Part shown: in pieces, positions 14,484-58,625 of the stretch
How the letters are laid out: each line of letters begins with the position of its first letter
Numbering within the stretch: the first letter of the stretch is position 1
Source: an uncultured delta proteobacterium
GTDB taxonomy: Bacteria > Desulfobacterota > Binatia > HRBIN30 > BPIQ01
DNA: 64,000 nt
Assembly: GCA_963761335.1 (NCBI GenBank)
Contig: CAVXGR010000005.1
Coordinates: forward strand, 229,684-293,683
Direction of reading: 5' to 3'
Translations under genes and position numbers: made by a program
The notes under the pieces: model-generated
Told to the model about the DNA's origin: nothing
The model's input: only the letters and a program-made list of their open reading frames with translations
Databases searched by the model: none

Positions 14484-14491
14484 AACCCCGC

Positions 14492-23260: not shown

Positions 23261-23309
23261 TGCATCGGTTCTTCCGGGGACGCCGCCGCTGTTGTATGGT
23301 CGCCGCACC

Positions 23310-25452: not shown

Positions 25453-25491
25453 CTGCGCGTCATGTCTCCATGAACCGCAGTTCCGCCAGGG

Positions 25492-26109
25492 CTATCGACG
25501 CTTGCGCCGAGATGGCGAGTGCGGGCGGGCGACGGCATCGATCTCCTGCCACAAGGAGTCGAGGTCGAGCACGAGCCCCGGACATCCGGGCACACGGGCG
25601 CGCCCTTCGCCCGCGGAGAGAGCGAGCACATAGCTTCGCGAAGCGGCGAGCTCGAAGATCTCCAGGCTGCGGAGCTGGGGATCGACGATCCAGTAGTAGC
25701 GGATGCGCGCCGACGCATAGTCGCGGAGCTTGTCGAGGCGGTCCCTGCGGGTGTCGCGCGGCCTCGGCGAGGTGACCTCGACGACCAGGTGCGGGGTCAC
25801 GCGAATGAGTGCATCGTCGAGATCGGGAAGGTGCCCTCGCAGGTAGACTGAAAGGTCCGGCTTGCGGCCCCGCCGCGGACCGACGGCGATCTTCGTCTCC
25901 GAGCCCGCCACCTGAGCGCCGCGGCGGCGCGCCCACCGGCGCAGCTCCGCGATCAGCCAGGCGACGACGATCTCGTGCAAGAAGCTCGGCATCTCCTCCT
26001 CCTTGAGGACGCCATCGACGAGCTCTCCCTCGATATCCTCGTCGAGCCGTGCCCACTCCGCGAGCGTGAGGGGCCTCTCCTGTGCGACATCCGCCGCGCT
26101 GCGCGACAT
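25492..26109 (-). CDS. Uma2-family (DUF820) putative endonuclease
   Basis: Matches the Uma2 / restriction-endonuclease-like fold pattern (..LVVEVTSP..YWIVDP..). Confidence 0.65.
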   Translation of the reverse strand: MSRSAADVAQERPLTLAEWARLDEDIEGELVDGVLKEEEMPSFLHEIVVAWLIAELRRWARRRGAQVAGSETKIAVGPRRGRKPDLSVYLRGHLPDLDDALIRVTPHLVVEVTSPRPRDTRRDRLDKLRDYASARIRYYWIVDPQLRSLEIFELAASRSYVLALSAGEGRARVPGCPGLVLDLDSLWQEIDAVARPHSPSRRKRR

Positions 26110-27941: not shown

Positions 27942-27987
27942 ATCGCCCCGAGCCGCAGCCCTCAAGGTCGACACGGGGCACTTGCCG

Positions 27988-34357: not shown

Positions 34358-34478
34358 GGTCAGAGTTCATGAGAACGAGGGCACCCCACCACCGGGCGCG
34401 GAGATGCGGTATTCGCGCGCCGCGGCGGGCGCGAGCTGAACGGGACGAGGCCGTCCCGCCGTCACCGACCGAGGGTGA

Positions 34479-39800: not shown

Positions 39801-40058
39801 GCTGTAGCCGCGCACCACCTTGGCGTAGGGCACCGACAGCATCTTGGTGGTGATCGGGTAGGTGATCTGGTCCTCGATGATGCGCGGTGCCTGGCCGGGA
39901 TACTCGGTGAAGACGATCACCTGGACATCGGACAGATCGGGGATGGCGTCGAGCGGCATGCGCGGGAGCACGTAGACGCCACCGAGGACGATGAACAGCG
40001 CCAGCAGGAGAACGATGAACTTGTTCTCCAGCGAGAAGCGGATGATGCGGGCGATCAT
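36852..40058 (-). CDS. heavy-metal efflux RND pump, CusA/CzcA family (second copy)
   Basis: 1068 aa. About 60% identity to the 27988-31110 protein by eye (MIARIIRFSLENKFIVLLL.. versus MIGRVIAACARHPLLTLLF..). Confidence 0.9.
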   Translation of the reverse strand: MIARIIRFSLENKFIVLLLALFIVLGGVYVLPRMPLDAIPDLSDVQVIVFTEYPGQAPRIIEDQITYPITTKMLSVPYAKVVRGYSFFNFSFVYVIFEDGTDLYWARSRVLEYLSQLQGQLPRGVTPTLGPDATGVGWAFIYSLTSPSRDLQQLRSIQDWYLKYELTATEGVSEVASVGGFVKQYQVTVDPEKLRAYDIPLGKVRQAIQRSNGEVGGRVMEMSETEYILRVKGYITDPRELEEAAVGARADGTPILLRDLGTVSIGPEMRRGIAEWNGTGETVGGIIVVRYGANARDVISRVKAKLAELKAGLPPDVQIHVAYDRSSLIDRSIHTLREKLLEESLAVSVVCVLFLFHFRSALVAIVTLPMAVLMAFIVMYAQGIGANIMSLGGIAIAIGAMVDAVIIMVENAHKHVERDAGRKPHWEIIRDASIEVGPTLFYSLLVITVSFVPVFTLQAQEGRLFKPLAFTKTYSMAAAAFLSITLAPVLMGYFVRGRIVPEHRNPLNRLLIAVYHPVIEFILRHRALCWGIIGAAALTVAATWWPYSRLGSEFMPPLYEGDFLYMPTTLPGISITKARELLQQTDRIIKRFPEVHHVFGKIGRADTATDPAPLSMIETTVMLNDEDTWPAVDITDAGGQVIAHRRRTPDELVDALNAAVQFPGVTNAWTMPIKTRIDMLSTGIKTPVGIKISGPDLPTLQRVGEEVEAVMRRVPNTLSAYAERVAGGNYVNFTIDREEIGRYGLTLGDVQDVIASAIGGMNVATTVEGLERYPINLRYPRELRSNLEELDNILVPTPMGQHIPLGQLVHMEIAKGAPGIKSENSRPNTWIYIDIRGIDVGTYVERAQKAVAEAKAQGQITLPVGYALTWSGQYEYMQRAQQRLLVILPITLLIIVLIIYLNTQSLLETFIVLLAVPFSLVGAVWLIWFLGYNMSIAVWVGMIALAGLDAETGVVMLLYLNVAHDEWQSKGMLRTLGDLREAIYHGAVQRVRPKAMTVSVILAGLLPILWSHGTGADVMKRIAVPMVGGVVTSFVMELVVYPAIYFVWRGWHLPHGAPTAPASAEPVV

Positions 40059-40063
40059 CGCGC

Positions 40064-41845
40064 CTACTCCCGGCCACCCGCCGCCGGCGTCTTCTCGACC
40101 TGCGACTCCGGCACCGGGATGAGCGACATGCCGCAGATCGGGCACTTGCCCGGCCCGGGGCGGTGCACGGACGAGTGCTCCGGCATCGGGCAGGTCCAGT
40201 AGGCGATCTTCGGCTTCTCGACGTGTCCGCCGCGCTTACGGACCGGCACCAGCTGCATGCCGCAGATCGGGCACCTGCCCGGCTTGTCGTAGAGAATGTC
40301 GGAGTGCTCCGGCATCGGGCACACGTAGAAGAGCTCCCCCTCGCCGGGCGGAGGCGCTGCGGCGCCGCTCTGGCGGGTGGCGTCCTTGATCGGCTGGGCG
40401 CCGCCGACGGTTCCGGGCTCCATGAACTTCACCGCGGCCTCCCGCAGGCGACTCTCGGAATCGAGGAGGAACTGCCCGGAGATCACCACCGTCTCGCCCG
40501 GCGAGAGGCCGGAGAGCACCTGCAGGTAATTGTTGTCGTCGCGCGCCCCGATCTTCAGCTCGCGGGGCTCGAAGTGGCCGGGGCGTGGCATGACGAAGGC
40601 GACGGCGCGCATGCCGGTGCGGATGACCGCCATGTCCGGAACCATGGTTGCCTCGGCGGCGACCTGGCTCACCAGCGACACGGTGGCATACATGCCGGGC
40701 TTCAGCTCGTATCCGGGATTGTGGAACTCCATGCGCACCGGCACAGTGCGCGTTTTGGCTTCGAGATACGGGTAGACGTAGGTAACGCGCCCGCGGAAGG
40801 TCCGGCCCGGCAGGTAGGTGAGCGTCATCAGAGCTTCCTGTCCGAGCTTCACGTAGGGGGCGTCGGACTCGTACACCTGGGCGATCACCCAGACGTTGGA
40901 GATGTCGGCGAGCTTGAAGACGTCGGTGCCGGCGGCGATCTTCTGTCCCTCGACGACGTTCTTCTGGGTGACGATGCCGGTGAAGGGCGCGCGGATGGAG
41001 AGCGTCTTCGTCACCTCGCCGCTCTTCTTCAGCTGCGCGATCTGCTCGGGGGAGATGTCGAAGAACTCCAGCCGCGTGCGCGCGTCGCGCACCAGCGCTT
41101 GCGAGTCGATGCGCGATCGGGGAATCAGTGGCAGGTCCGCCGTCTGCTCGTTGCGCAGCGCCGCGACGTATTCCTGCTGGGCCGAGAACAGCTCCGGCGA
41201 GTACAGGTCGAACAGCGGATCGCCCTTGTGCACCTGCTGGCCGGTCTGATCCACGTAGAGCTTCTCGATCCAGCCGCCCACCTTGGTGGCGACCGCCGCC
41301 AGCGTGGTCTCGTCATAGGCGACGTTGCCGAGGGTGCGGATGCTCTTGTTGAGTGGCGCGCGGATCACCTTGTCGACGCGCACGCCCATGTTCTGCTCGA
41401 TCACCGGGTCAATGCGGATGGTTCCGGCAGAGGCTTCGTCGGCGTACACGGGGACGAGGTCCATCCCCATCGAGTCCTTGCCCGGCTCGCTGTGGGTCTC
41501 CCCGGGAATCATCGACGATTTCCAGTAGAGGGTCTTGCGCTCCGGGGCTGCGGCTTCCGTCCGTTTGATCGGTGGTGACGCCGCCGGCTGGCTGAGACCC
41601 ATGGCGGCGGCGCGGTCCGCGGCCATGGGTTGCAGCTTCATGCCGCACTTCGGGCAGTCGCCGGGATGGTCCTGGACCACCTCCGGGTGCATGCCGCAGG
41701 TGTACCAGGTCCTGGCGCTCTGCGGCGCCGCGCTCGCGTCGACGACGCTCTCCTGGTGCTGCCGCTGCATCCACAGCCAGGCGCTGCCGGCGCCGGCGGC
41801 GAAGACGATACCGGTGAGGGCGATGAGGGAAATGGCGCGCTTCAT
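40064..41845 (-). CDS. efflux RND periplasmic adaptor, CusB-like, with three heavy-metal-binding-domain motifs
   Basis: N-terminal YTCGMHPEV..CPKCGMKL. Two C-terminal copies YVCPMPEHS..CPICGMQL and YWTCPMPEHS..CPICGMSL. Start taken at the internal Met MKRAISL. Confidence 0.85.
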   Translation of the reverse strand: MKRAISLIALTGIVFAAGAGSAWLWMQRQHQESVVDASAAPQSARTWYTCGMHPEVVQDHPGDCPKCGMKLQPMAADRAAAMGLSQPAASPPIKRTEAAAPERKTLYWKSSMIPGETHSEPGKDSMGMDLVPVYADEASAGTIRIDPVIEQNMGVRVDKVIRAPLNKSIRTLGNVAYDETTLAAVATKVGGWIEKLYVDQTGQQVHKGDPLFDLYSPELFSAQQEYVAALRNEQTADLPLIPRSRIDSQALVRDARTRLEFFDISPEQIAQLKKSGEVTKTLSIRAPFTGIVTQKNVVEGQKIAAGTDVFKLADISNVWVIAQVYESDAPYVKLGQEALMTLTYLPGRTFRGRVTYVYPYLEAKTRTVPVRMEFHNPGYELKPGMYATVSLVSQVAAEATMVPDMAVIRTGMRAVAFVMPRPGHFEPRELKIGARDDNNYLQVLSGLSPGETVVISGQFLLDSESRLREAAVKFMEPGTVGGAQPIKDATRQSGAAAPPPGEGELFYVCPMPEHSDILYDKPGRCPICGMQLVPVRKRGGHVEKPKIAYWTCPMPEHSSVHRPGPGKCPICGMSLIPVPESQVEKTPAAGGRE

Positions 41846-43305
41846 GATCTGTTGCTCCCATTCGTCGATTCGGTTGGGGCGGGGGCCGTCGCCGGCTCGA
41901 GGTCGGCGCGCCGCGGCACCTGCACGCCGATCAGCTGGCGCAGGTCGGCGAAGCGCTGCTCCAGCTCCGCCAGGGCGCGGTGGTAGGAGAGCGTGAGGTT
42001 GAGCCACTTGCGCCAGTTCTCGATCAGCGCTGTGAACTCGATGGCATTTGCCTGGTAAGCGGAGTTGGAGGCCTCGATCGCCTGCCAGGCGCGCGGCACG
42101 ATGAGATCGCGGAACAGAAGCGCCTGGCGGTACTGCGTGTCGATCTTTACCAGCGTGTCCTGGAGCTGGAGGAAGATCTGGTTGCGCAGCTCGTCGTACT
42201 CCTCGACCGAGGCGAGCGTCTGCGCGTTGCCCTCGAGGACGCGGGCCCGCAGTCGCTTCCACCAGATCGGCAGGTTCAGGCCCAGCGATAGATTCCAGGC
42301 GTCGTCGCCGGTGCGCACCGGGCTGATGCCCGAGCTGGAGATGGCCGTGTACGTCGTGCCCAGGGTCAGATCCGGATAGTAGTTGAGATGCGCCAGATCG
42401 ACGGCCTCGAGGTCGCGCCGGATCTGGGCCCGCAGTCGCTCCAGGCGCGGGTTCGAGGTGACGGCCCGGTCGATTGCCTGCGGCAGCTTCCACTCCACGG
42501 CGGCCAGCTCGAAGGGGCGGGGCGGGGGCAGCGGCGCGTCCACCGGTCGATTCATCAGGCTGTCGAGCTGCGCCTGGGCCGTGGTGCGTTGCTGCTCGAG
42601 GGTGATGAGGTCGTTGGCCAGCCCGTAGAGCTCGACCTCGGCGCGCAACACGTCCTGCTGCGTCGCCTGACCCGTGCGGTAGCGGGCGGCGGCGACCTCG
42701 CGGATCTGGCCGAGGAGCCTCTCACTCTCGCGGGTGATCTGGATGGAGACCTCGGCGAGGTAGTAGCTGTAGTAGGCCCTCTGCACCTGACCGACGGTCG
42801 AGACCCGCGCCTCGTCAATGCCGTCCAGAGCCATGCGCACCGCCTGCTCGGCGACGCGCCCGCGGGCCGCCAGCTTGCCGGGGAAGGGCAGCTTCTGCGA
42901 CACGCCCACGGAGCCGGCCATCATTCCGGCGGCGGTCTCGATCATGTCGCCGGTGGGCGGGATCAGGGTCAGCATCGGATCGTCGAGCGAGGTCATCTGC
43001 GGGACCTGGTATCCGAGAACCTGGGCCTGGCGGACGGCGCGGCGAATCGCGGGATTCTCGGCGAGGGCGACGCGGACGTAGTCGTCCAGCCCGGCGCCCG
43101 AAGGCAGGGGCTCGACAGGCGGAGGCGCCCCGGCGTGCAGGCTCTGCGCCGCCGTATCGACGACGGCCTGATCGTCTTCGACGGCCGGCTGCAGCGGCGC
43201 CGCTTCGGCGGCGACGCGTCGCTGCAGTTTGCCGTCTACCGCGGCGCAGCCGGTGACCGCCAGCAGCGCCAGCAGGGCGATGAAATGTATCGGTTGTGGC
43301 TTCAC
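41842..43305 (-). CDS. TolC-family outer-membrane efflux lipoprotein (CusC/CzcC-like, second copy)
   Basis: Lipobox LLAVTGCAA. Outer-membrane-factor repeats. 4-nt overlap with the adaptor gene. Confidence 0.8.
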   Translation of the reverse strand: MKPQPIHFIALLALLAVTGCAAVDGKLQRRVAAEAAPLQPAVEDDQAVVDTAAQSLHAGAPPPVEPLPSGAGLDDYVRVALAENPAIRRAVRQAQVLGYQVPQMTSLDDPMLTLIPPTGDMIETAAGMMAGSVGVSQKLPFPGKLAARGRVAEQAVRMALDGIDEARVSTVGQVQRAYYSYYLAEVSIQITRESERLLGQIREVAAARYRTGQATQQDVLRAEVELYGLANDLITLEQQRTTAQAQLDSLMNRPVDAPLPPPRPFELAAVEWKLPQAIDRAVTSNPRLERLRAQIRRDLEAVDLAHLNYYPDLTLGTTYTAISSSGISPVRTGDDAWNLSLGLNLPIWWKRLRARVLEGNAQTLASVEEYDELRNQIFLQLQDTLVKIDTQYRQALLFRDLIVPRAWQAIEASNSAYQANAIEFTALIENWRKWLNLTLSYHRALAELEQRFADLRQLIGVQVPRRADLEPATAPAPTESTNGSNRS

Positions 43306-43490
43306 GACTCCTCCAGCTCGGTTTCCTGCTTTGCACGTCTCCGACGTAGGGGCGGGTTTGCCCAGCCAGGCGATGTGCCAGCGTTGCCCCCCGCCGCCGC
43401 GAAAAGGCGCGGCGGAAAAGACGAGGCGCGCGCGAGCGACGGCTGCGAGTGCAGCCGTTCAGCGCGGTCCCGGCGAAGCGGCTGGAGGAA

Positions 43491-47278: not shown

Positions 47279-47490
47279 CAGCAAATGGGAATCCCGTTGG
47301 GCAAAGCCACCCGTTCTTGGTGTTCTCGTGGCTCTGCGCCGCGGCGCCGCCTCCTTCGCGCCTCGCCATTGCCGACCGCGGCTTGCCGGAAGCTCAGGAG
47401 TCGGGTAGCGATTTCATTACTTTGCGGCTGAACCCGATCACCCTGATCCTGTCCTTCTCACGTCCGAGAGAAGGGGCGCGTAGCCGATGC

Positions 47491-48900
47491 GTGGTGTCGT
47501 GTGCGGCTCTCTTGTTGGTCGCTGCAACCGTTGCCGCGGCGGCGCCGGTGCGTTGGATCGCCGTCGGCGGCGGCGCGGATCCGCGCTCCACGCAGGTTTC
47601 CCTGGAGCAGGATGTGGCTCTGGCGAAAGAGACGCTGGGGCCGGGCGGAAAGCTCTTCTTCGCCGGCGGAGAGGACGCCTACGCGGTGCAGGTGTTGAAC
47701 CAGACGCCACACGGCGACGCGCTGCTGCGCGAGCTGGGTGATCTGTTCGAGCCCCGCGACGGCCGCGACGCGCACTACCGCCGCCCCGCCGTGCACACCG
47801 ACGGACCGGCGACGGACACCGAGCTCTTCGATGCCCTGTCGGCGGCGCTGCAGGACGGCGCCGCGCCGCTCCTCGTCTATGTTGCCACGCACGGCGACGT
47901 GGGCGAGAGCCCCAGCGAGAACTCGATCCACCTGTGGGGCGACGAGGCGGTGACCGTCGGCGACCTCGCCGAGTTTCTCGCCCGGCACCGCAGCCGGCGT
48001 CCGCTGCGTTTCGTGGTCACTTCCTGCTATTCCGGCGGCTTTGCCGAGCTCGCCTTCGCCGGCGCCTCGCCCGAGAACGGCGCGGCCCCGGGGATCCGCT
48101 GCGGCCTGTTCTCCACGGAGTGGGATCGGCAGGCGAGCGGCTGTGACCCGAATCCCGATCGCGGCACGCAGCAGGGGTACGGCATCCACTTTTGGCACGC
48201 CCTGCGCGGCGAGGATCGCGATGGTCAGCCATTGCCGCCGTCGGTGCTCGACCTCGACGGCGACGGCAAGATCTCGTTGCTCGAGGCGCACACGCGGGCG
48301 CGCATCGCCTCGACCTCGATCGACATCCCGACGACGACCTCGGAGCGCTGGCTGCGCGAAGCGGTGCCCGCCGGAGGCGCCATCGAGACCATCGCCGCGG
48401 CGGCGCCGATGTCGTTTCCCGAGGAAGATGCGGTCATCGCCACGCTCGGGAGCCAGCTCTCGCTGCCCAACGAGGTCACCGCCCGGCGGCGCTTCGACCA
48501 CCTTTCGGACGAGCTGCGGCAGGCCAACGACGCCGAGGCGCGCGCCGAGGACGACGAGGCGGATGCCTATGCCGACCTGCGCATCTCGCTGCTCGGCCGT
48601 TGGCCGGTGCTCGACGATCCCTGGCATCCGGACTTCGCGAGCACGATTCGCGACCATCGCGCCGCCATCGACGCGGCGCTGCACCAGGGCACGCGCCCCG
48701 CCGTCTATCACAGTGCCCTCGACCGCCTGTCACGCGCCGGCGATGTGGCCGAGCGCGTGCTGCTCGAGTACGCCCGTGTGGCGCGCCTGGTGCGCGCCTA
48801 TGAGACGCGTGCCCTCGCCAACCGCCTGCGGGCCCAGGGCGGCCCCGCATGGGAAACCTACCGCCGCCTCCTCGAGTGCGAGCGCGGAACCCCGAGGTAG
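47491..48900 (+). CDS. secreted caspase-like (clan CD, C13/legumain-like) cysteine peptidase with an EF-hand Ca-binding motif
   Basis: His/Cys dyad context (VYVATHGD and FVVTSCYSGGF). Canonical 12-residue EF-hand loop DLDGDGKISLLE. Start uncertain: GTG at 47491, or the upstream TTG/ATG at 47317. Confidence 0.5.
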   Translation: MVSCAALLLVAATVAAAAPVRWIAVGGGADPRSTQVSLEQDVALAKETLGPGGKLFFAGGEDAYAVQVLNQTPHGDALLRELGDLFEPRDGRDAHYRRPAVHTDGPATDTELFDALSAALQDGAAPLLVYVATHGDVGESPSENSIHLWGDEAVTVGDLAEFLARHRSRRPLRFVVTSCYSGGFAELAFAGASPENGAAPGIRCGLFSTEWDRQASGCDPNPDRGTQQGYGIHFWHALRGEDRDGQPLPPSVLDLDGDGKISLLEAHTRARIASTSIDIPTTTSERWLREAVPAGGAIETIAAAAPMSFPEEDAVIATLGSQLSLPNEVTARRRFDHLSDELRQANDAEARAEDDEADAYADLRISLLGRWPVLDDPWHPDFASTIRDHRAAIDAALHQGTRPAVYHSALDRLSRAGDVAERVLLEYARVARLVRAYETRALANRLRAQGGPAWETYRRLLECERGTPR

Positions 48901-48970: not shown

Positions 48971-49891
48971 CTATTTCACTGCCAGAGGGTTGAGGGGTGA
49001 GCCGACGCCGCCGGTCACCTTGAGGGGCGGCGCGCTGAAGAGAAACTCGTAGACGCCGTCGGCGGCGCAGTCGGCGGCGAGATCGCCGAGGTCGAACATC
49101 TCGCCCAGCGTCAGACCCATGTCGCGGATGCACAGCAGGTGGAGCGGCAGCGGCGTGCTGGCGTCCTCGAAGGGAATCACCTCGACGGCGTTGGTGTCGC
49201 TCGCCACGGCCGCCACCTCGCGGGCGTGCAGCCACTCGGCGCAGGCGACCCCGAGACCGGGCATCTGGCGCATGTAGCCGACGCGGTCTCCATCCTTCTT
49301 GAAGACGTCGAGGTGGCCGGTGCGAATGAGCAGGACGTCGCCGGACTCGGCGCGGACGCCGGCGGCGCGCTCGGCGGTCTCGAGATCACCGGGACCGATG
49401 ACGCGGCCGGGCGGCAGTCGATCGACGCCGGCGGCGCGGGCGAGGTCGAGGAGCACGCCGCGGGAGACGATGCCGGCGCCCACCTTGTCGATGCCGTTGC
49501 GGGCCGCCCCGGCGGGCGTGATCGTCGAGGCGGGATAGCCGTTGTAGAGCTGTCCGCCGTAGTGGACGTGCGCCAGGCTGTCCCACTGGGTGGCGCACTG
49601 CAGCGGCATGACGACGACGTCGTCGGAGTAGCGGAAGCCCTCCGGGTCGGGACCGATCTGTCCGGCCACGGCGCTCATCAGGTGCAGTGGGTTGACGCGC
49701 CCGCCCTGGCCGATCTGGGGCCCCTCGGCGCCGAAGTTGAGACCGAGGCTGAAGACGTCGCCGCGCTTCACGCGGGCGGCGCCGCGCCGCACCACCTCCG
49801 GGGTGATGAAGTTGAGAGTGCCGCGCTCGTCGTCCGCGCCCCAGCGCCCCCAGTTCGAGACCCTCTTCGCGAGAGCGCGTACCTTCTCCAT
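48971..49891 (-). CDS. putative cyclase family protein (kynurenine-formamidase-like fold)
   Basis: 306 aa. Pattern ..HVHYGGQLYNGY.. and ..DLLIRTGH.. is typical of the putative-cyclase family. Last gene of the tetR-P450-fdx operon. Confidence 0.6.
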   Translation of the reverse strand: MEKVRALAKRVSNWGRWGADDERGTLNFITPEVVRRGAARVKRGDVFSLGLNFGAEGPQIGQGGRVNPLHLMSAVAGQIGPDPEGFRYSDDVVVMPLQCATQWDSLAHVHYGGQLYNGYPASTITPAGAARNGIDKVGAGIVSRGVLLDLARAAGVDRLPPGRVIGPGDLETAERAAGVRAESGDVLLIRTGHLDVFKKDGDRVGYMRQMPGLGVACAEWLHAREVAAVASDTNAVEVIPFEDASTPLPLHLLCIRDMGLTLGEMFDLGDLAADCAADGVYEFLFSAPPLKVTGGVGSPLNPLAVK

Positions 49892-49907
49892 GGTTGCCGG
49901 CGCCGCC

Positions 49908-50102
49908 TCAGTCTTCGACGATCGAGAGCGCCTGGCGCGGGCAGAGCCGCACCGCTTCCTCCACCTTGCTGCGCAGAGACTCGGGCGGTCGCTCCTGCTT
50001 GAGATGGGCCTTGTCGTCGTCCTCGACGACGAAGACCTCGGGCGCCGCCTTCTGGCACTTCGCGTTTCCCTCACACAGATCGTAATCGACCACGACTCTC
50101 AT
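49908..50102 (-). CDS. small [3Fe-4S]/[4Fe-4S] ferredoxin, P450 redox partner type
   Basis: 64 aa. C-x5-C ... CP cluster ligands (DLCEGNAKC .. LCPRQA). Immediately downstream of the P450. Confidence 0.75.
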   Translation of the reverse strand: MRVVVDYDLCEGNAKCQKAAPEVFVVEDDDKAHLKQERPPESLRSKVEEAVRLCPRQALSIVED

Positions 50103-50156
50103 AGAAGCCCTCTCTCGAATGGAAGTGGCCTAAATTTGCGCGTGCGGAGCCCGGCG

Positions 50157-51368
50157 TCAACCCGCCGCCGGCGTGAAGCGCACCGGCATCCGCTTGATTC
50201 CGGCGATGAAGTTGGAGCGCAGGCGCGCCACCGGCCCGGCCAGCTCGATGTCGGGGAGACGGCGCAGCAGCTCCGCGAACATGAGGCGGATCTCCAGGCG
50301 CGCCAGATTGGAGCCGAGGCAGAAGTGCTCGCCGATGCCGAAGGCGAGGTGGTTGTTGGGCGTGCGGCCGACGTCGAAGTGGTCGGGTGCCGCGAAGACG
50401 TCCTCGTCGCGGTTGGCGGAGATGTAGTAGATCACCACCTTGTCGCCCTCGCGGATCCGGTGGCCGCGCAGCTCGGTGTCGCGGGTCGCGGTGCGGCGGA
50501 AGTGGGTCACCGGGGAAACCCAGCGCAGCATTTCCTCGACGGTGGTGTCGATGAGCGACGGATCGGCGAGCAGGCGGGCGCGCTGCTCGGGGTGCTCGAT
50601 GAGCGCCAGCATACCGCCGGAGATGAGGTTGCGGGTGGTTTCGTTGCCGGCCACGGCGAGCAGCAGGAAGAAGAGGTCGAACTCGAGCTCGCTGAGCTGC
50701 TGGCCGTCCACCTCGCCGTTCATCAGCACGCTCACCAGGTCGTCGCCGGGGTGCTGGCGCCGCTCGATGGCGAGCTGGTTGGCGTAGACGTACATCTCGG
50801 TGGCGGCGATCTTGCCGTCCTCCAACGAGGTCTGGAACTCCGGGTCGTCGAAGCCGATCAGCCGATTGCTCCACTCGAACAGCTTGTGCCGATCCTCCAG
50901 CGGGATTCCCATCATCTCGGCGATGACCTGCAGCGGCAGCTCGCAGGCGATGTCGGCGACGAAGTCGCACTCGCCGCGCGCCGCCACCTTGTCGACGATG
51001 AGGCGCGCCTGCTCGCGAATGCGGGGCTCGAGGCGGCTGATCATGCGCGGCGTGAAGCCGCGGCTCACCAGCGAGCGCAGCTTGGTGTGCTTCGGCGGGT
51101 CCTGATTGAGCATCATCAGCTGCATCTGTTGCAGGTCCTCCTCCGCCGGCTCGAAGAGGAAGGTCGCCCGGCGCTCGGAGGAGAAGGTGCGGGGATCGCG
51201 AGACACGGTGATGACGTCGGCGTGCTTGGTGACCGCCCAGAAGCCGGGTCCCTGCGGGTCGGGATGCCAGAACACCGGCGCCTCGGCGCGCAGGCGCGCG
51301 AAGGCGGCGTGCGGCACGCCCTTCTCCCAGAGGTCCTGGCTGTAGAGATCGATGTCGGACAGGCTCAT
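50157..51368 (-). CDS. cytochrome P450 monooxygenase
   Basis: Haem-thiolate loop FGIGEHFCLG. EEMLRW (ExxR). I-helix AGNETT. Confidence 0.9.
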   Translation of the reverse strand: MSLSDIDLYSQDLWEKGVPHAAFARLRAEAPVFWHPDPQGPGFWAVTKHADVITVSRDPRTFSSERRATFLFEPAEEDLQQMQLMMLNQDPPKHTKLRSLVSRGFTPRMISRLEPRIREQARLIVDKVAARGECDFVADIACELPLQVIAEMMGIPLEDRHKLFEWSNRLIGFDDPEFQTSLEDGKIAATEMYVYANQLAIERRQHPGDDLVSVLMNGEVDGQQLSELEFDLFFLLLAVAGNETTRNLISGGMLALIEHPEQRARLLADPSLIDTTVEEMLRWVSPVTHFRRTATRDTELRGHRIREGDKVVIYYISANRDEDVFAAPDHFDVGRTPNNHLAFGIGEHFCLGSNLARLEIRLMFAELLRRLPDIELAGPVARLRSNFIAGIKRMPVRFTPAAG

Positions 51369-51410
51369 GGTCGGATCTCCCGCAGTGCGGCCCGCGGCGT
51401 TGCCGCCGGC

Positions 51411-52088
51411 TCAGCGCCTGCGCACGGCGCGCGGCCGCGCTCGGCCGGCGCCGAGAAGCTCCGCCACGGCGGTCTTGAGGAAGCGGCGTTGCCGTTGCAG
51501 CGCTGCGGGATCGAGGGGATCGCCCTGCATCACCGTCTGCAGGAGCTTGGCGTTGGCGAAGTAGCCGAAGATCAGCAGGTAGAGGCCGGCGGCGAGGTGC
51601 GGCAGCTCCTCCGCCGTCCACGGCCCGCCGCTGCTGGCCAGCACCTGCACGCCTTCGGCGTAGACGGGCCGCAGGAGCCGGGTGATGGTGCTGCGCAGGT
51701 AGCGGCTGTCGTCGAGCGCGGCGCGCTGGATCAGCCGCGGCAGCTGCGGATGCTCGACCAGGTAATCGAACATGCGGTCGAGGAAGTGATCGACGACGCC
51801 CGCCTCGACGGCGGCGCCGCTCCCCTTCTCGGCATCGACGCGGGCGCTCTCCGCCACCAGCTCGAGAACCGGATCGAGGCCGCGCGCTAGCGCCGCCTCG
51901 TAGAGCGCCCGCTTGTTGCGGAAATGGTTGTAGAGGCTGGCCTGGTTCTTCAGCCCCGCCTCGGCGGCGATGCCGCGCACCGAGACCCCGGCGAAGCCGC
52001 TCTCCGCGAAGCGCCGCTCCGCGGCGTCGAGGATCAGATCCCGCGTCGACCGCGCCTCGGCCTTGCGCGCCGCGCCGCTGCCAGCCAT
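51411..52088 (-). CDS. TetR/AcrR-family transcriptional regulator
   Basis: N-terminal HTH (GFAGVSVRGIAAEAGLKNQASLYNHFRNKRALY). First gene of the P450 operon. Confidence 0.85.
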   Translation of the reverse strand: MAGSGAARKAEARSTRDLILDAAERRFAESGFAGVSVRGIAAEAGLKNQASLYNHFRNKRALYEAALARGLDPVLELVAESARVDAEKGSGAAVEAGVVDHFLDRMFDYLVEHPQLPRLIQRAALDDSRYLRSTITRLLRPVYAEGVQVLASSGGPWTAEELPHLAAGLYLLIFGYFANAKLLQTVMQGDPLDPAALQRQRRFLKTAVAELLGAGRARPRAVRRR

Positions 52089-52096
52089 GCGCCCTG

Positions 52097-52122
52097 TTAC
52101 AAAACAAACGTTTGTTCGTCAA
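52097..52122 (-). promoter_or_regulatory. tetR promoter/operator: TTGACG -35 box immediately followed by the perfect palindrome AACAAACGTTTGTT
   Basis: Palindrome at 52103-52116, 15 nt upstream of the tetR ATG (52088). Same sequence and architecture as 14455-14474. Confidence 0.55.
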
Positions 52123-52411: not shown

Positions 52412-54241
52412 ATGAAAGATCAGCTCTCCGCCGCGACCCGTCTGGCTCCGGATGTCTCGCCGCCGCTGCCGGCTCTCGAATATCTGCGGGGGCCGGAGGA
52501 CGTCAGGCGGCTGTCGCCGGCGCAGCTGCAGAGGCTCGCCGAGGAGATGCGCGAGTTTCTCATCGACGCGGTCACCCGCATCGGCGGGCACCTCGGGGCC
52601 GGGCTCGGCGTCGTCGAGCTGACCATCGCGCTGTTCGCCGAGCTCGATCTGAACGATGGCGACAAGCTGGTGTGGGACGTCGGCCACCAGTGCTATCCGC
52701 ACAAGCTGCTCACCGGGCGGGCTCGCGGTTTCGAGTCGCTGCGCCGCCGCGGCGGCATGTCGGGCTTTCCGGATCCGCGCGAGTCGAGCTGGGACACGGT
52801 GAAGACCGGGCACGGGGGCACCAGCATCTCCACCGCCGCCGGCTTCGCCCTCGCCTGGAAGCACGCCGGAGCAGACCCGGAACGGCGCGCCGTGGCGGTG
52901 ATCGGCGACGGCGCCCTGCAGGAAGGCAGCGCCTACGAGGCGCTGCATCACGCCGGCAGCATTGCCGACCTGCCGCTGATCGTCGTCCTCAACGACAACG
53001 GCATGTCGATCAGCCCCAGCGCCGGGGCTCTTCCCGGCCTTCTCGATCGGCAGGGCCGCTCGGGCGGCGACAACTTCTTCGAGCAGCTCGGCTTCCGCTA
53101 CTGCGGTCCGTTCGACGGTCACGACATCGAGGCCGTGCGCCGGGCGCTGCGCACCGCCCGCTGCGAGCCGGGGCCGGTGGTGCTGCACCTGCTGACTCGC
53201 AAGGGACGCGGCTACCGCGACGGCGAGCCCGAGCACACCTGCTATCACGCCGTCTCCGCCGCGGGCGGTGGCGCTGTCGAGTATCCGCAGCAGGGCGGGC
53301 CGAGCTTCACTGCGGCGTTTGCCGACGCCGCCATCGCCATGGCGGAGGAGGATCCGCGCCTGGTGGTGGTCACCGCGGCGATGCTCGAAGGGACCGGGCT
53401 GGTGAAGTTCCAGCGGCGCTTCCCGGATCGCTGCCACGACGTCGGCATGGCGGAGCAGCACGCCGTGGCGCTGGCGGCCGGCTTGGCGCTCGCCGGCCGG
53501 CGGCCGATCTGCGCCATCTACTCGACCTTCCTGCAGCGCGCCTACGACCAGGTGTTCCAGGAGGTGGCGCTGCAGCGCGCCCGGGTTCTCTTCTGTCTCG
53601 ACCGCGGCGGCCTGGTGGGCTCCGACGGCGCCACTCACAACGGCGTCTTCGACGTCGGCTATCTCCGCTGCCTGCCGAACCTGGCGCTGATGGCGCCGCG
53701 CGACATCGGCGAGCTGGCGCAGATGATGCGCCTCGCCTGGGAATGGGATGGACCGGTGGCCATCCGTTTCCCGCGCGGCAGCGGCGCGCGGCCGGAGTGG
53801 CAGCTGCCGCATGCGCCGCTCACCTTCGGCCGCGCCGAGCGCGTCGCCCCGGGGGAGGACGGGTGCATCCTCGCCTACGGGGCGATGACCTATGCGGCCC
53901 TGGAAGTACGGCGGCGCCTGCTCGCCGAGAGCGGCGTGCGGCTGGCCGTGGTCAACGCGCGCTTCGCCAAGCCTCTCGACGAGGACCTGATCGCCGAGGA
54001 GCTACAGCGGCAGCCGGTGGTCTTCACCCTCGAGGATCACGCCCTCAGCTGCGGCTTCGGCGCCGCCGTCGCCGAGCTGGCGCACACCCGCCTGTCGGGG
54101 CAGATGGACAGCGGCCGCCTCTGCCTCCTCGGTATTCCCGATCGCTTCTTCGACCACGCCGAGCGCGCCGAGCAGCTCGAGGAGGCCGAGCTTGGTGTCG
54201 ATCAGATCAAGGGGCGGGTTGTTAGGTTGTTAGGTTGTTAG
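52412..54241 (+). CDS. dxs: 1-deoxy-D-xylulose-5-phosphate synthase
   Basis: TPP-binding GDGALQEGSAYEAL plus transketolase-like pyrimidine and C-terminal domains. The last 8 codons and the stop are encoded by the octamer repeat array. Confidence 0.9.
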   Translation: MKDQLSAATRLAPDVSPPLPALEYLRGPEDVRRLSPAQLQRLAEEMREFLIDAVTRIGGHLGAGLGVVELTIALFAELDLNDGDKLVWDVGHQCYPHKLLTGRARGFESLRRRGGMSGFPDPRESSWDTVKTGHGGTSISTAAGFALAWKHAGADPERRAVAVIGDGALQEGSAYEALHHAGSIADLPLIVVLNDNGMSISPSAGALPGLLDRQGRSGGDNFFEQLGFRYCGPFDGHDIEAVRRALRTARCEPGPVVLHLLTRKGRGYRDGEPEHTCYHAVSAAGGGAVEYPQQGGPSFTAAFADAAIAMAEEDPRLVVVTAAMLEGTGLVKFQRRFPDRCHDVGMAEQHAVALAAGLALAGRRPICAIYSTFLQRAYDQVFQEVALQRARVLFCLDRGGLVGSDGATHNGVFDVGYLRCLPNLALMAPRDIGELAQMMRLAWEWDGPVAIRFPRGSGARPEWQLPHAPLTFGRAERVAPGEDGCILAYGAMTYAALEVRRRLLAESGVRLAVVNARFAKPLDEDLIAEELQRQPVVFTLEDHALSCGFGAAVAELAHTRLSGQMDSGRLCLLGIPDRFFDHAERAEQLEEAELGVDQIKGRVVRLLGC

Positions 54242-54510: not shown

Positions 54511-55146
54511 ATGCCGATCGCAGCAGCGGTGAGGGCGCGGCGCACCCAGGCGGAGCGCAGCGCGGCAATGCAGGCGCGCCTGCTCGACGCGGCGCTCGAC
54601 TGTCTGGTCGAGCACGGCTACGCCGGCACCACCACCACCCTGGTCGCCGAGCGCGCCGGGGTATCCCGCGGCGCCCAGCTGCACCACTACCCGACGCGCG
54701 CCGCGCTGGTCTCCGCCGCCATCGAGCACCTCTTTGCCCGGATGACCGAGGAGTACGTCGACGGCTTCGCCCGCCTCGCCCCGGGCGCCGACCGCCTGCG
54801 CGCCGCCGTCGACATGCTCTGGTCGATGTACGCCAGGCCGCCCTACGCCGCCGTCCTCGACCTCTACATCGCGGCGCGCACCGACGCCGAGCTGCGCGCC
54901 CATCTGAAGCCGATCGCCGAACGCCATCAGGAGAACGTCTTCCGCCTGGCGCGCCGCTACTTTCCCGAGGCGGCGCGCCACAATCCCGATTTCGACGTCA
55001 CCCTGGAGCTGGTTCTCGACGCCATGCAGGGCATGGCGGTGTCGCGCTTCGTGCACGGGCGCGCCGCCGCCGGGGCTCGACGCCTGGAGGCCGTGCAGCA
55101 GATCGCCGCCCGCGCCCTGCGTTTCCGTGTTCCCGGGAGGAAGTGA
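54511..55146 (+). CDS. TetR/AcrR-family transcriptional regulator
   Basis: N-terminal HTH (GYAGTTTTLVAERAGVSRGAQLHHYPTRAAL). The promoter has TTGACT followed by GTTTGTTTG. Confidence 0.85.
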   Translation: MPIAAAVRARRTQAERSAAMQARLLDAALDCLVEHGYAGTTTTLVAERAGVSRGAQLHHYPTRAALVSAAIEHLFARMTEEYVDGFARLAPGADRLRAAVDMLWSMYARPPYAAVLDLYIAARTDAELRAHLKPIAERHQENVFRLARRYFPEAARHNPDFDVTLELVLDAMQGMAVSRFVHGRAAAGARRLEAVQQIAARALRFRVPGRK

Positions 55147-55150
55147 AGCG

Positions 55151-56014
55151 ATGCCCGACCTGACCATCTATGCCATCCCGGCGTTCTTCGCCCTGATGAT
55201 CGCCGAGGGAGTGCTCGCCGGCGCCACCGCCATGCGCGGCTACGAGTCCCGCGACACCGCCGCCAGCCTCGCCATGGGCGTCGGCAACGTGCTCATCGAC
55301 CTGCTGATGAAGGGCGTTCACCTGGCGTTGCTCTTCTGGGTGGCGCAGCACGCCGTGCTTCACCTCGGGCACGCGTGGTGGTCGTGGGTGCTGCTGCTGG
55401 TCGCCGGCGACCTGGTCTACTACTGGTTTCACCGCCTGCACCACGAGGTGCGCTTTCTGTGGGCGGCGCACGTGAATCATCACTCCAGCCAGCGCTACAA
55501 CCTGTCGACGGCGCTGCGGCAGTCGTGGACCACGCCCTTCACCATCATGCTCTTCTGGTGGCCGCTCGCCCTCATCGGCTTCGACCCGCTGATGATCATG
55601 GCGGCCATCGCCATCAACACCGTCTACCAGTTCTGGATCCACACCGAGGCCATCGGCCGGCTGGGCGTGCTCGAATGGGTGCTCAACACCCCGTCGCATC
55701 ACCGCGTCCACCACGGCGCCAACGTCGAGTACCTGGACCGCAACTACGGCGGCATGTTCATCGTCTGGGACTTTCTCTTCGCCAGCTTCGAGCCGGAGCG
55801 GGCCCGGGTGCGCTACGGGCTCACCAAGAACATCGACACCTTCAACCCGGTGAAGATCGCTTTCCACGAGTGGATCGCCATGCTCGGCGACGCCTGGCGC
55901 GCCGATTCCTGGCGCGACCGCATGGCGCATCTGCTCCAGCCCCCCGGCTGGAGCCCCGACGGCTCAACGCTCACCGCCCGCGAAATGCAGGCCGCCCCTA
56001 CCGCTGCCGGGTGA
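55151..56014 (+). CDS. sterol desaturase / fatty-acid hydroxylase superfamily membrane protein
   Basis: Three His boxes: HRLHHE, HVNHHS and HHRVHHG. Start lies 4 nt after the TetR stop. Confidence 0.8.
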   Translation: MPDLTIYAIPAFFALMIAEGVLAGATAMRGYESRDTAASLAMGVGNVLIDLLMKGVHLALLFWVAQHAVLHLGHAWWSWVLLLVAGDLVYYWFHRLHHEVRFLWAAHVNHHSSQRYNLSTALRQSWTTPFTIMLFWWPLALIGFDPLMIMAAIAINTVYQFWIHTEAIGRLGVLEWVLNTPSHHRVHHGANVEYLDRNYGGMFIVWDFLFASFEPERARVRYGLTKNIDTFNPVKIAFHEWIAMLGDAWRADSWRDRMAHLLQPPGWSPDGSTLTAREMQAAPTAAG

Positions 56015-56760: not shown

Positions 56761-58188
56761 TCAGCCCCAGATGGGCGGGCGGCGGTCGCGCCAGGGGCGG
56801 GCCTCTTCGAGCTGCGCCGCCAGGCGGAAGAGCGTCGCCTCGTCGCCGAAGCGGCCGGTGAACATGAGGCCGACGGGAAGGCCGTCGGCGGTCCAGTGCA
56901 ACGGCAGCGAGATCGCCGGCTGGCCGGTGGCGTTCTGCATCGGCGTGAAGGGCACGTACTCCATCACCGGGGCCATCGCCTTCATCGGGTCCTTCTCCTG
57001 GATGTCGATCGTGCCGAGGCGAATCGGCGGCGATGCCAGCGTCGGCGTCAGCCAGCAGTCATAGGTCTGGTGGAAGCGCGCGATCTGGCGCGAGGCCATC
57101 TGCAGCATCGCCATCGAAAGATGATACTGGCTCGCGGGCACCTGCTTCCCCTGCTGATAGAGGGCCCAGGTGAGCCCCTCGAAGTCCCCTTCGCTCGGCG
57201 TGCGGCCGTTCATGAGACCGAAGCCCTCGATCATCGCGGCGTGAGCCGAGAGGAAGACGGAGAGGAAGGCGCCGCTGAGCATGCCGACGTCGACCGGCGG
57301 AGACGACTCCTCGAGCGTGTGTCCCAGCTCCTCGAGCAGCTTGGCGGTCGACTCCACGGCGGCGACGCACTCCGGGTGCAGGGCCGCGCCACTCGGTGAT
57401 CGCGTCGCGAAGGCGATGCGCAGGCGGCCGGGCGGCGTTCCGGTCTCCTCGAGGAACGGCCGCTTCACCGGCGGCGCCCAGTACGGATCGCCGGGCTCGG
57501 GGCCGTGGGTGCAGTCGAGGGCGGCGGCGCTGTCGCGAACCGTGCGGCTGACGACACCCTCGACGACAATGCCGCCGGCGAAGTCGCCGATGTCCGGCCC
57601 CATCGGGTTGCGGGCCCGCGTCGGCTTGAGACCGACGAGACCGCAGCACGATGCCGGAATGCGAATCGAGCCGCCGCCGTCATTGGCGTGCGCCAGCGGG
57701 ACGATCCCCGCAGCCACGGCGGCGGCGGAGCCGCCACTGGATCCGCCGGTCGAGTGATCGGGGTTCCACGGATTGCGTGCCGGCCCGTAGAGCGCCGACT
57801 CGGTGGTCGGCAGGATGCCGCATTCGGGCGCGTTGGTCTTGCCCAGCGGAATTAGGCCCGCCGCCTTGAAGCGCACCACCAGCGTATCGTCGCGGTGCGC
57901 CGGCACTCCCACCATGAAGCGGCAGGCCGACGCCGTCGGCACGCCCTCGAGGTTGCCGAGGATGTCCTTGAGGAGAAACGGCACACCGCCGAAGGCGCCG
58001 TTCGCCGGTTGCGCCGCGGCGCTGCGGGCGCGGTCGTAGATCTTGTAGACGACCGCGTTCAGCTGCGGGTTGTGTCGCTCGATGCGCGCAATCGCCTCAT
58101 CGACGAGCTCGGCAGGAGTGACCTCGCCGCGGCGCACGAGATCCGCGAGGCCGAGGCCGTCATGGGCGGCATATTCGGAAAAGGACAT
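56761..58188 (-). CDS. amidase (amidase-signature family)
   Basis: [14 protein letters not shown] amidase-signature motif and Ser-cisSer-Lys context. 475 aa from MSFSEY. Confidence 0.85.
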
Positions 58189-58408
58189 GCGCGCACGATT
58201 AGCGCCGCGGCCGCCGCGGTTCAATGGCGGAGGAGAGCCGAGGGGGACTGGCTCCTCTTCGGCTCGAGTGGCGCACTTCGAACGGCGTGTCGCTCGCCGC
58301 CGAAGAGGTGCCTGTCCCCCACCGCCGCGCGCCGCTGGGGACAGGCAACTCTTGCCGTCGGAGGGCGGCAGTTTTCCCGTTTGGTGGTGGCCGGCAAAGT
58401 AGCCTGCT

Positions 58409-58625
58409 TCGAAAATCTGTTGGGTGAAGGTCTGGCGGAGTCCCGGCGCTGGGTGGAGGCTTATCGCCCCGGAGGGGCGTAGGCATGTAGCCCCGGGTGT
58501 CAACCCGGGGACTGCGGTTCCGATTGGCCCAGATCAGCGCGCCGGAGGGGCGCAGGAGTAGAGGCCGCGTGAATCACGTCGATGAGCTTCCCACGCACCC
58601 AGCGGTGATCATCGGCGTACAGGCG
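58409..58625. repeat. family-B MITE-like element, 5' portion
   Basis: Above 90% identical to 35621-35855. Confidence 0.7.

Follow-up and report, generated by a model that had tools for sequence, protein, structure and literature searches.

We analysed a 64,000-nucleotide stretch of DNA from an uncultured delta proteobacterium of the Binatia (contig CAVXGR010000005.1, positions 229,684–293,683; hereafter the window), in which four genes encoding a TetR-family regulator, a cytochrome P450, a ferredoxin and a PF04199 "putative cyclase" lie head-to-tail on the minus strand. This order agreed with the preliminary description of the locus, whose outer coordinates, 48971 and 52088, were exact. A second group of genes in the same window encodes a DUF1329 protein, two DUF35 proteins, two thiolase-fold proteins (ThlC and ThlD) and an enoyl-CoA hydratase (Table 1). 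One perfect 14-bp palindrome, AACAAACGTTTGTT, was found twice, once in front of each group, and no further copy was present in the 64 kb even when 3 mismatches were allowed (0.19 expected). The two groups thus share an operator, as had been proposed for the TetR operon and the DUF35/thiolase-like operon, and this operator proved to be conserved in relatives.

The gene calls required some care, because at a G+C content of ~68% mechanical lists of open reading frames (ORFs) are full of spurious frames. A screen of third-position G+C (GC3) gave values of 0.89–0.94 in four consecutive minus-strand frames, which is the signature of coding sequence, and the calls for TetR, P450, ferredoxin, cyclase, the first DUF35 protein and hydratase were identical to products on a public contig of 472,979 bp. 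A 367-residue ORF with a GTG start (48971–50074) was rejected for the cyclase as over-extended, overlapping the ferredoxin gene in another frame; the true start was the ATG at 49891, and the resulting 306-residue form agreed with the public calls and with the lengths of homologues. The TetR assignment was borne out by an N-terminal helix-turn-helix domain (PF00440), a TetR_C_29 domain and the palindrome in the gene's own promoter. Similarity of this protein to structures in the PDB was mostly confined to the N-terminal DNA-binding region.

The intergenic gaps within the unit are 42 nt (TetR–P450), 54 nt (P450–ferredoxin) and 16 nt (ferredoxin–cyclase), with a Shine-Dalgarno-like GGGAGA before the P450 gene and GAGAGAGGG before the ferredoxin gene. 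A consensus promoter scan detected no internal promoter-like site within the four-gene unit, and a terminator scan gave a single match, inside the P450 gene and at chance frequency. A hairpin 3' of the last gene (-42 kcal/mol) was no better than shuffled sequence (z -1.5), and Rfam and tRNA scans returned no match in or near the operon. The unit is flanked by a convergent gene downstream (47317–48900, plus strand) and by a divergent gene for 1-deoxy-D-xylulose-5-phosphate synthase (DXS) upstream. The order TetR-P450-ferredoxin-cyclase recurs in independent contigs (related loci L085 and L086, in our numbering), which argues against chance juxtaposition. From the operon anatomy and the conserved gene order we infer that the four genes are co-transcribed. 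The convergent neighbour encodes a 527-residue protein with no Pfam match and a weak NCBIfam match to the EACC1-associated caspase domain (E 1.3e-4).

Table 1. Genes and regulatory elements of the two operons (window coordinates)
Feature	Position	Strand	Remarks
DUF1329/LolA-like protein	12829-14262	-	PF07044 + PF17131; divergent from DUF35 operon, sharing operator 1
Operator 1	14461-14474	.	In DUF35/thiolase-like promoter, between DUF35a and the divergent DUF1329 gene
DUF35a	14492-14968	+	158 aa; PF01796/OB_ChsH2_C; predicted scaffold for thiolase-like pair
DUF35b	15016-15516	+	166 aa; PF01796/OB_ChsH2_C; predicted scaffold for thiolase-like pair
ThlC, Ltp4-like thiolase-fold protein	15522-16640	+	372 aa; best NCBIfam PRK07937
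ThlD, Ltp3-like thiolase-fold protein	16637-17788	+	383 aa; PRK08313, 597 bits (cut-off 514)
EchA19-like enoyl-CoA hydratase	17872-18684	+	270 aa; ECH_1
PF04199 "Cyclase"	48971-49891	-	306 aa; PF04199 E 2.4e-20
Ferredoxin	49908-50102	-	64 aa; Fer4_15/Fer4_13
P450	50157-51368	-	403 aa; PF00067
TetR-family repressor	51411-52088	-	225 aa; first in operon; PF00440 (E 1.8e-13) + TetR_C_29
Predicted sigma-70-type promoter of the TetR-P450-ferredoxin-esterase unit	52094-52122	-	-35 TTGACG (52122-52117), 17-nt spacer, -10-like TAACAG (52099-52094)
Operator 2	52103-52116	.	14 nt upstream of TetR start codon, in TetR promoter

The two copies of the palindrome are embedded in the same promoter layout. 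At both, TTGAC(G/A) abuts the 5' side of the operator, a TA-rich hexamer follows after 3–4 bases, and a start codon lies 5–8 nt further on. The TetR ATG is 5 nt past the -10-like TAACAG, and operator 1 is flanked by TTGACA (14455–14460) and TTAAAC/TAAACA (14478–14484), with an ATG at 14492. A strict consensus promoter scanner did not call the TetR promoter, whose assignment is a direct reading of the sequence. Transcripts from both operator-bearing promoters would probably be leaderless or have a very short leader.

We compared the operator across three sets of loci: one anchored on the P450 (80 GTDB loci, 1.19 Mb, P450 identity 45–73%) and two anchored on TetR (18 metagenome loci at 42% identity or more, 99 kb; 62 loci at 39% or less, 494 kb). 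The P450-anchored set contained 14 motif matches with at most 2 mismatches, all of them within roughly 120 nt upstream of the P450 start or of an adjacent TetR start. Thirteen matches were found beside the closer TetR orthologues, and none in the 494 kb surrounding the 62 more distant homologues. The layout TTGACn, operator, 3–4 nt and TAnnnn was visible in most of about 20 related loci, and an equivalent of operator 1 was present upstream of DUF35a in L083, L084 and L085, with a weaker match (2 mismatches) in L101/L102. About 30 independent contigs show this arrangement of promoter and operator ahead of orthologous TetR or P450 genes. These three comparisons indicate that the operator is not an accident of one genome. 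We conclude that the TetR orthogroup, judging from this pattern, would recognise the directly abutting half-sites AAC(A/G)AAC and GTT(C/T)GTT and repress by promoter occlusion. Orthologues of the regulator at 56–72% identity adjoin ferredoxin, P450 or enoyl-CoA hydratase genes in L007, L084–L086 and L090–L105. In L088 (6798–8660), from another MAG, the operator AACGAACGTTCGTT stands after TTGACG and before a TetR gene of 42% identity, followed by a gene for a MaoC/FAS1_DH-type hydratase domain; regulon membership therefore differs between lineages.

The gene neighbourhoods of relatives join the two operons. In L083, L084, L085 and L007 they form one contiguous cluster, and orthologues of all ten window proteins, at 62–85% identity, were found in single clusters of the first three. 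L085 shows the plainest form, in which the DUF1329 gene on the minus strand is followed by one uninterrupted run of DUF35, DUF35, two thiolase-like genes, enoyl-CoA hydratase, AMP-ligase, TetR, P450, ferredoxin and cyclase; L083 and L084 are variants with the cyclase gene 1–5 genes beyond the P450 gene. Hydratase and thiolase-like genes lie directly upstream of TetR in L007, L093–L098 and L101/L102, and distant P450 homologues in Myxococcota adjoin thiolase-like/DUF35 genes (L040, L043) or hydratase genes (L017–L020, L036). The earlier proposal of hydroxylation plus side-chain cleavage was thus upheld, because evidence of the gene-fusion type and the common operator both link the two sets of genes. 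The AMP-ligase of the relatives' clusters passes the PRK07798 model. It was also considered as a FadD19 orthologue, and this was dropped: it is only 26% identical to the AMP-ligase of a Tsukamurella cluster, which is itself FadD8-like. Two further loci, L101/L102 (Ga0265331_10000480 and Ga0265332_10000500), keep the DUF1329 gene divergent from DUF35-DUF35-thiolase-like-thiolase-like-hydratase-TetR-ferredoxin and have an unrelated gene of 662 residues in the place of the P450 gene.

The translated P450 contains the heme-loop motif FGIGEHFCLG, the I-helix motif AGNETT and EEMLR, and it scored 107 bits against PF00067 (cut-off 22.8). Its best match in the PDB was CYP125MRCA (8vxi, E 1.3e-173), followed by CYP124A1, CYP125A1 and CYP268A2 (349–358 bits), CYP126 (319) and CYP142 and P450terp (~278–284). 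Identity was 63.7% to CYP125MRCA, 46.2% to CYP124A1 and 44.0% to CYP125A1. The nomenclature rule of more than 40% identity for membership of a P450 family (PMC12100521) is satisfied for CYP125 and CYP124 alike and does not discriminate here. In a neighbour-joining tree from BLOSUM distances, CYP125A1 and CYP125MRCA stood beside the window clade and CYP124A1 outside it; the trees were built without reference sequences of CYP142, CYP126 and CYP268. Family assignment by phylogeny had been suggested for this enzyme; we assign the P450, on sequence, to the CYP125/CYP124 group of terminal-methyl hydroxylases, and not to one single family, since the neighbour-joining bootstraps are split. It does not fall in a well-characterised family of unrelated function, which would have spoken against the preliminary description; its group comprises terminal hydroxylases of sterols and methyl-branched lipids, and because CYP125 and CYP124 enzymes prime side-chain degradation, the grouping fits a side-chain pathway.

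CYP125MRCA is a reconstructed ancestor that 26-hydroxylates cholesterol and cholest-4-en-3-one and also oxidises phytosterols, which it prefers, and vitamin D3 (PMC12100521). The window P450 has its fold and motifs in common with CYP125MRCA, CYP125A1 and CYP124A1, but it is an extant protein from a non-actinobacterial clade, and the pocket residue M243 of CYP125MRCA, which opens a side channel and corresponds to F260 in CYP125A1, is Leu. The reconstructed protein itself shares only ~53% identity with CYP125A1 and with a Tsukamurella CYP125. More than 100 metagenome homologues of the window P450 at 68–77% identity were among the matches listed, many of them auto-labelled cholest-4-en-3-one 26-monooxygenase; the named relatives are metagenome-assembled genomes (MAGs) of Candidatus Binatia, "Deltaproteobacteria", Myxococcota and Chloroflexota.

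Only three cysteines occur in the ferredoxin, arranged as C10-E-G-N13-A-K-C16 ... C54-P (C-x2-N-x2-C...C-P). The second position of its motif is not Cys and a P450 gene adjoins its gene, so that it conforms to the CXX?XXC(X)nCP type and is predicted to carry a [3Fe-4S] cluster, in agreement with the class-I P450 with its own 3Fe-4S-type ferredoxin that had been proposed. Its closest solved relatives are P450 partners (8amp, the CYP51-ferredoxin fusion 6mcw, and 4id8), and many related loci have a ferredoxin gene next to that of the P450. Like Fdx4, Fdx7 and Fdx11 of Mycobacterium marinum and Rv0763c, Rv1786 and Rv3503c of M. tuberculosis, it is a protein of ~63 residues with three cysteines and one cluster, encoded next to a P450. 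Rv3503c sits in the cholesterol region of M. tuberculosis. Its listed equivalent is Fdx11, one of the three M. marinum ferredoxins (Fdx4, Fdx7 and Fdx11) known to carry the Asn variant of the motif (PMC6237146), and Asn at the variable position is also what the window ferredoxin has in common with them.

The second operon encodes proteins that point to side-chain cleavage. ThlD scored above the cut-off for PRK08313, has the PRK07937-type ThlC adjacent and has two PF01796 genes upstream, as expected of an Ltp3-type protein. When ThlD was aligned with SCP2-thiolase, BbsB and an archaeal thiolase, the nucleophilic Cys was found to be Gly, HDCF to be YVPF and the His of GHP to be Asn, so that it lacks the residues of a Claisen-cleaving thiolase. 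The aldolases Ltp2 (YDHF) and Sal (YDCY) use the Tyr at the HDCF position as their catalytic base (PMC12329534), and we predict that ThlD is a retro-aldolase rather than a thiolase. Ltp2-ChsH2(DUF35) and Sal-Shy(DUF35) likewise combine a thiolase fold without nucleophilic Cys, Tyr opening the HDCF-like motif and an obligate DUF35 partner encoded alongside, and in Sal the Cys is replaced by Gly as in ThlD. The window differs from both systems in its YVPF motif, in its two distinct thiolase-fold subunits and two unfused DUF35 proteins, which have no Cys4 zinc ribbon, and in its hydratase, which is a crotonase (EchA19-like) instead of the MaoC type. ThlC appears to have LMAT for HDCF, read from the sequence without alignment, so that even the Tyr is seemingly gone; it may be a non-catalytic structural partner. 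The hydratase had EchA19 structures as its best PDB matches (4f47 and 6wyi, E 3e-66) and, by sequence, is best described as EchA19-like, not as a certified equivalog.

A cluster in a record of Tsukamurella, a cultured organism, offered a direct comparison. It encodes an Rv3520c-type luciferase-like monooxygenase (LLM), a certified EchA19, a double-DUF35 protein, PRK07937 and PRK08313 proteins, a CYP125 (62% identical to CYP125A1) and a steroid 3-ketoacyl-CoA thiolase. Its PRK08313 protein is 57.7% identical to ThlD, with the same three substitutions, and its PRK07937 protein 39.8% identical to ThlC. The window DUF35 pair aligns with the N- and C-terminal halves of the Tsukamurella double OB-fold protein at 38.5% and 45.4% identity, respectively, and the two are fused as one 334-residue gene in L084. 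We take this Tsukamurella set to resemble the region of M. tuberculosis with echA19, Rv3520c, Rv3521, ltp4 and ltp3, and presume, on indirect support, that PRK08313 and PRK07937 are M. tuberculosis Ltp3 and Ltp4. Ltp3 and Ltp4 are reported to be aldol-lyases needed only for C24-branched sterol side chains, and FadD19 likewise to be essential only there (PMC6273163). The Binatia cleavage operon would thus be the counterpart of the actinobacterial echA19/DUF35/ltp4/ltp3 set. The divergent DUF1329 gene has orthologues of 66–73% identity in the clusters of L007, L083, L084 and L085, and beside orthologues of the PF04199 gene in L087 and L089; its product is a candidate periplasmic carrier for a hydrophobic substrate.

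The last gene of the TetR operon had been described as a putative cyclase of amidohydrolase-like type. It does belong to PF04199, and the assignment could be refined: its sole PDB match, over the whole length, was 5IBZ (E 2.1e-63), the structure of MGS0169, a metagenomic carboxylesterase stimulated by Mn/Mg in which mutagenesis validated Gln127, Gln131, Asp133, Arg87, His286 and Glu299 (PMC5341072). The motif Q98-x3-Q102-x-D104-x3-H108 together with R65, H251 and E264 aligns with the MGS0169 residues and places the protein in this subgroup; Q98, Q102, D104, H108, H251 and E264 are invariant in 120 homologues. Because these active-site residues are conserved, the protein is best read as a predicted MGS0169-type metal-dependent carboxylesterase or lactonase, not a cyclase. 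Acetate and phenyl esters are the preferred substrates of MGS0169, and a dienelactone hydrolase belongs to its family (PMC5341072). Phe84 of MGS0169 is Ile here, and whereas MGS0169, recovered in an activity screen, has no known physiological context, the window gene lies in a P450 operon. The label kynurenine formamidase (KynB) that JGI gives to homologues was ruled out: Gln replaces both leading His residues, Ala stands for Gly and Leu for Pro (LQCATQWDSLAH), no KynB structure was among the PDB matches at E ≤ 0.01, and no tryptophan-catabolism gene adjoins the PF04199 gene.

The esterase gene follows the ferredoxin gene in L085, and the linkage kept in the closer relatives L083–L085 ruled out an accidental neighbour. 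Its linkage to the P450 is clade-specific and confined to the closest clade. Other esterase orthologues (L084, 11871–17468; L087, 8479–17317; L088, 10001–20921; L089, 8634–10921) lie by DUF1329 genes and by a module of TetR, LLM, aldehyde dehydrogenase (ALDH), in some cases an amidohydrolase, and zinc alcohol dehydrogenase (ADH), which suggests a second conserved unit of lipid or ester oxidation. The esterase is best regarded as accessory to a broader network of lipid oxidation.

Taken together, these data make it likely that the two operons form a TetR-repressed, two-promoter regulon that oxidises a terminal methyl group and then shortens the side chain of a sterol-like or methyl-branched lipid. 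A TetR dimer bound to AACAAACGTTTGTT in the -35/-10 spacer would exclude RNA polymerase at both promoters, one driving the autoregulated tetR-P450-fdx-esterase unit and the other the DUF35-DUF35-ltp4-like-ltp3-like-echA19-like genes and, probably, the divergent DUF1329 gene; the repressor would be released by the substrate or by a CoA-thioester intermediate. The P450 would hydroxylate the terminal methyl, and might oxidise it further, with electrons from the dedicated [3Fe-4S] ferredoxin and a reductase encoded elsewhere. The acid would be converted to its CoA ester by a ligase encoded elsewhere in the genome, desaturated, and hydrated by the EchA19-like enzyme. The Ltp3/Ltp4-like pair, on its scaffold of two DUF35 proteins, would then split the beta-hydroxyacyl-CoA by retro-aldol cleavage and not by thiolysis, which is the actinobacterial solution for C24-branched phytosterol side chains. 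The esterase would most likely release the substrate or an intermediate from an esterified form, such as a steryl ester, an acetate ester or a lactone, and the DUF1329 protein may handle the substrate. The preliminary description had called the P450 substrate unknown; it can now be narrowed to sterol-like or terminally methyl-branched lipids, and the earlier caution holds in so far as the substrate is deduced indirectly. Phytosterols are preferred by the nearest characterised P450, and the aldolase-type pair is tied to C24-branched chains; C24-alkyl sterols or closely similar isoprenoid lipids are therefore the most probable substrates, with C24-alkyl sterols as our best single guess.

Several observations weigh against this interpretation. 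Neither the acyl-CoA ligase of the relatives' clusters nor an acyl-CoA dehydrogenase gene is present in the window, and no ferredoxin reductase gene was noticed there. L101/L102 keep the cluster without a P450, and the hydroxylase can therefore be lost or relocated. When corrected distances and an outgroup were used, the CYP125 placement of the P450 received 17 of 100 neighbour-joining bootstraps and is unsupported, and grouping with CYP124A1 received 49. ThlC reached 338 bits against the PRK07937 "lipid-transfer protein" model, below its cut-off of 419, and the hydratase fell below the cut-offs of both the EchA19 model (308 bits, cut-off 400) and PRK07799 (313, cut-off 316). In the 80 GTDB loci of the P450-anchored set, no esterase gene was found near the P450 gene, and elsewhere esterase orthologues adjoin DUF1329 and the LLM-ALDH-ADH module. 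Finally, genes for ring degradation (KshA, KstD or Hsa-type) were not noticed, either across the 64 kb or in the tables of related loci, though no search was aimed at them; non-steroid branched lipids, or a metabolism of the side chain only, are therefore a serious alternative.

The same regulon might serve acyclic methyl-branched lipids in the manner of CYP124, such as iso-branched fatty acids or alkanes, isoprenoids of the phytol/phytanate type, or hopanoid and terpenoid chains. The P450 is slightly nearer to CYP124A1, an omega-hydroxylase of methyl-branched lipids, than to CYP125A1, bootstrap support for a CYP125 affiliation is absent, genes for catabolism of the steroid nucleus are not apparent in the window or the fetched flanks, and esterase relatives keep company with LLM-ALDH-ADH modules of a kind usual in the oxidation of hydrocarbons or alcohols. 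We nevertheless think this rather unlikely, as the closest characterised enzyme, at 64% identity, is the sterol and phytosterol hydroxylase CYP125MRCA, the co-regulated hydratase and aldolase-type proteins are nearest to EchA19 and to the Ltp3/Ltp4-type proteins of a cluster with CYP125 and FadA5, and regular 2-methyl-branched isoprenoid acids, by established beta-oxidation chemistry, need no retro-aldolase. A Baeyer-Villiger route parallel to the aldolase, in which the P450 hydroxylates subterminally, a dehydrogenase makes a ketone, an LLM inserts oxygen and the PF04199 protein hydrolyses the ester or lactone, would make good use of the ester preference of MGS0169 and of the dienelactone hydrolase in its family (PMC5341072). 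Esterase orthologues do recur by TetR-LLM-ALDH-ADH modules (L084, L087, L088), and the window has an LLM gene at 11262–12335, but this LLM is only 25–30% identical to those of the modules and lies apart from the esterase gene with no operator match nearby. Since, in addition, the window holds no ADH or ALDH and luciferase-like monooxygenases are not shown here to be Baeyer-Villiger enzymes, we regard such a route as very improbable.

We also weighed a biosynthetic or tailoring role, with an endogenous terpenoid or sterol being modified and the divergent DXS supplying isoprenoid precursors. The DXS gene (52412–54241) divergently adjoins TetR, a gene of the sterol-desaturase family lies 2.4 kb away under a second TetR, and clusters for sterol biosynthesis, with a C24 methyltransferase among their genes, are reported from Binatia MAGs (PMC9531527). 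On the other side, neither the DXS nor the FA_hydroxylase gene stands beside the cluster in any relative, PF04199 proteins are hydrolases and the one in the window has an esterase active site, and the genes conserved alongside encode degradative enzymes that depend on CoA (ligase, hydratase and aldolase-type proteins) and a substrate-responsive TetR repressor; a biosynthetic operon is hardly credible on this evidence.

The degradative regulon proposed above most resembles the sterol side-chain genes that KstR controls in mycobacteria and rhodococci. KstR is a TetR repressor whose 14-bp palindrome overlaps core promoter elements at several operons (PMC1995591), and the window follows the same logic of a promoter-overlapping 14-bp palindrome, with the same module of a terminal-methyl P450, an EchA19-type hydratase, a double DUF35 and an Ltp4/Ltp3-type pair. 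The two systems differ in their operators, as the window half-sites abut without a central spacer, unlike TAGAAC-N2-GTTCTA and its 2-nt centre (TnnAACnnGTTnnA), and the KstR model NF033703 did not match the window TetR at E ≤ 1e-3; the regulator is therefore not a member of KstR by either measure. They also differ in host, here uncultured and of Gram-negative type with Candidatus Binatia MAGs as the closest named relatives, and in gene content: DUF35 is split in two genes, a ferredoxin, a PF04199 esterase and a DUF1329 protein are added, and no ring-degradation genes were noticed nearby. The locus thus appears, from its sequence, to work like the KstR-controlled side-chain genes while standing outside the KstR regulon.

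Aerobic degradation of sterol side chains is known almost wholly from Actinobacteria and a few Proteobacteria, and the same enzymatic logic recurs here in an uncultured lineage, abundant in soils and sediments, that carries it as a small module under its own regulation, with thousands of homologues in metagenomes. No paper that we found connects Binatia with sterol catabolism or with the P450 clade described here; the one relevant match was the report of sterol biosynthesis clusters in sponge-associated Binatia (PMC9531527). A wider proposition is that Binatia and allied "deltaproteobacterial" and Myxococcota lineages carry a widespread, self-contained regulon for removing the side chains of C24-alkylated sterols without linked ring-degradation genes, in which the metalloesterase has a dedicated step, for instance hydrolysing steryl esters or an ester formed along the pathway; the regulon would be compact and have a TetR and an operator of its own. 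We offer this tentatively and have more doubt than belief in it; if it were true, a major uncultured group of soils and sediments would be an unrecognised sink reshaping sterols that are used as biomarkers, and CYP125-type sterol hydroxylases would not be purely actinobacterial in origin, given an extant clade 64% identical to CYP125MRCA. The 63.7% match of an extant enzyme to that reconstruction bears on the published claim of an actinobacterial ancestor for CYP125 enzymes. In practical terms, a natural P450-ferredoxin couple so close to a phytosterol-preferring enzyme would be useful for steroid biocatalysis, and the locus provides a testable TetR/operator pair and a genetic handle on the still uncharacterised Ltp3/Ltp4 reaction. 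For the orphan MGS0169 esterase subfamily, now mis-annotated as kynurenine formamidase, it also offers a physiological setting for the first time. Nothing in the locus overturns current understanding, and the concept stays within established sterol and lipid catabolism.

Some other features of the window were recorded. The DXS protein scored above its NCBIfam cut-off, and its gene (plus strand) is separated from TetR by a 323-bp intergenic region; it was rejected as part of the operon, as the adjacency is kept in no relative. Beyond it, the second TetR gene (54511–55146, plus strand) overlaps by 20 nt the gene for an FA_hydroxylase/sterol-desaturase-family membrane protein (55127–56014), and 54511–56014 looks like a separate two-gene regulatory unit with no copy of the palindrome. 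This second TetR has no similarity to the "TetRb" beside esterase orthologues and was rejected as its counterpart. An Acido-Lenti-1 RNA motif of Rfam (58465–58510, minus strand; 40 bits, gathering threshold 37) lies ~260 nt upstream of an amidase gene (56761–58206). A region of ~3 kb at 22400–25500 has no clear frame of high GC3 and contains no Rfam family or tRNA. Two neighbouring CusA/CzcA-type RND efflux systems with membrane-fusion and outer-membrane components were identified from translations only (27988–34366 and 36852–43458, both minus strand), and a cation-diffusion-facilitator-like gene lies at 26982–28046. Within the first of these systems, a 51-nt tandem repeat (34006–34255; 4.9 copies, 95% identity) codes for a repeated peptide of 17 residues (…TTRRDAASTVEEASRL…) close to the N-terminal end of the outer-membrane efflux protein (32717–34366, minus strand).

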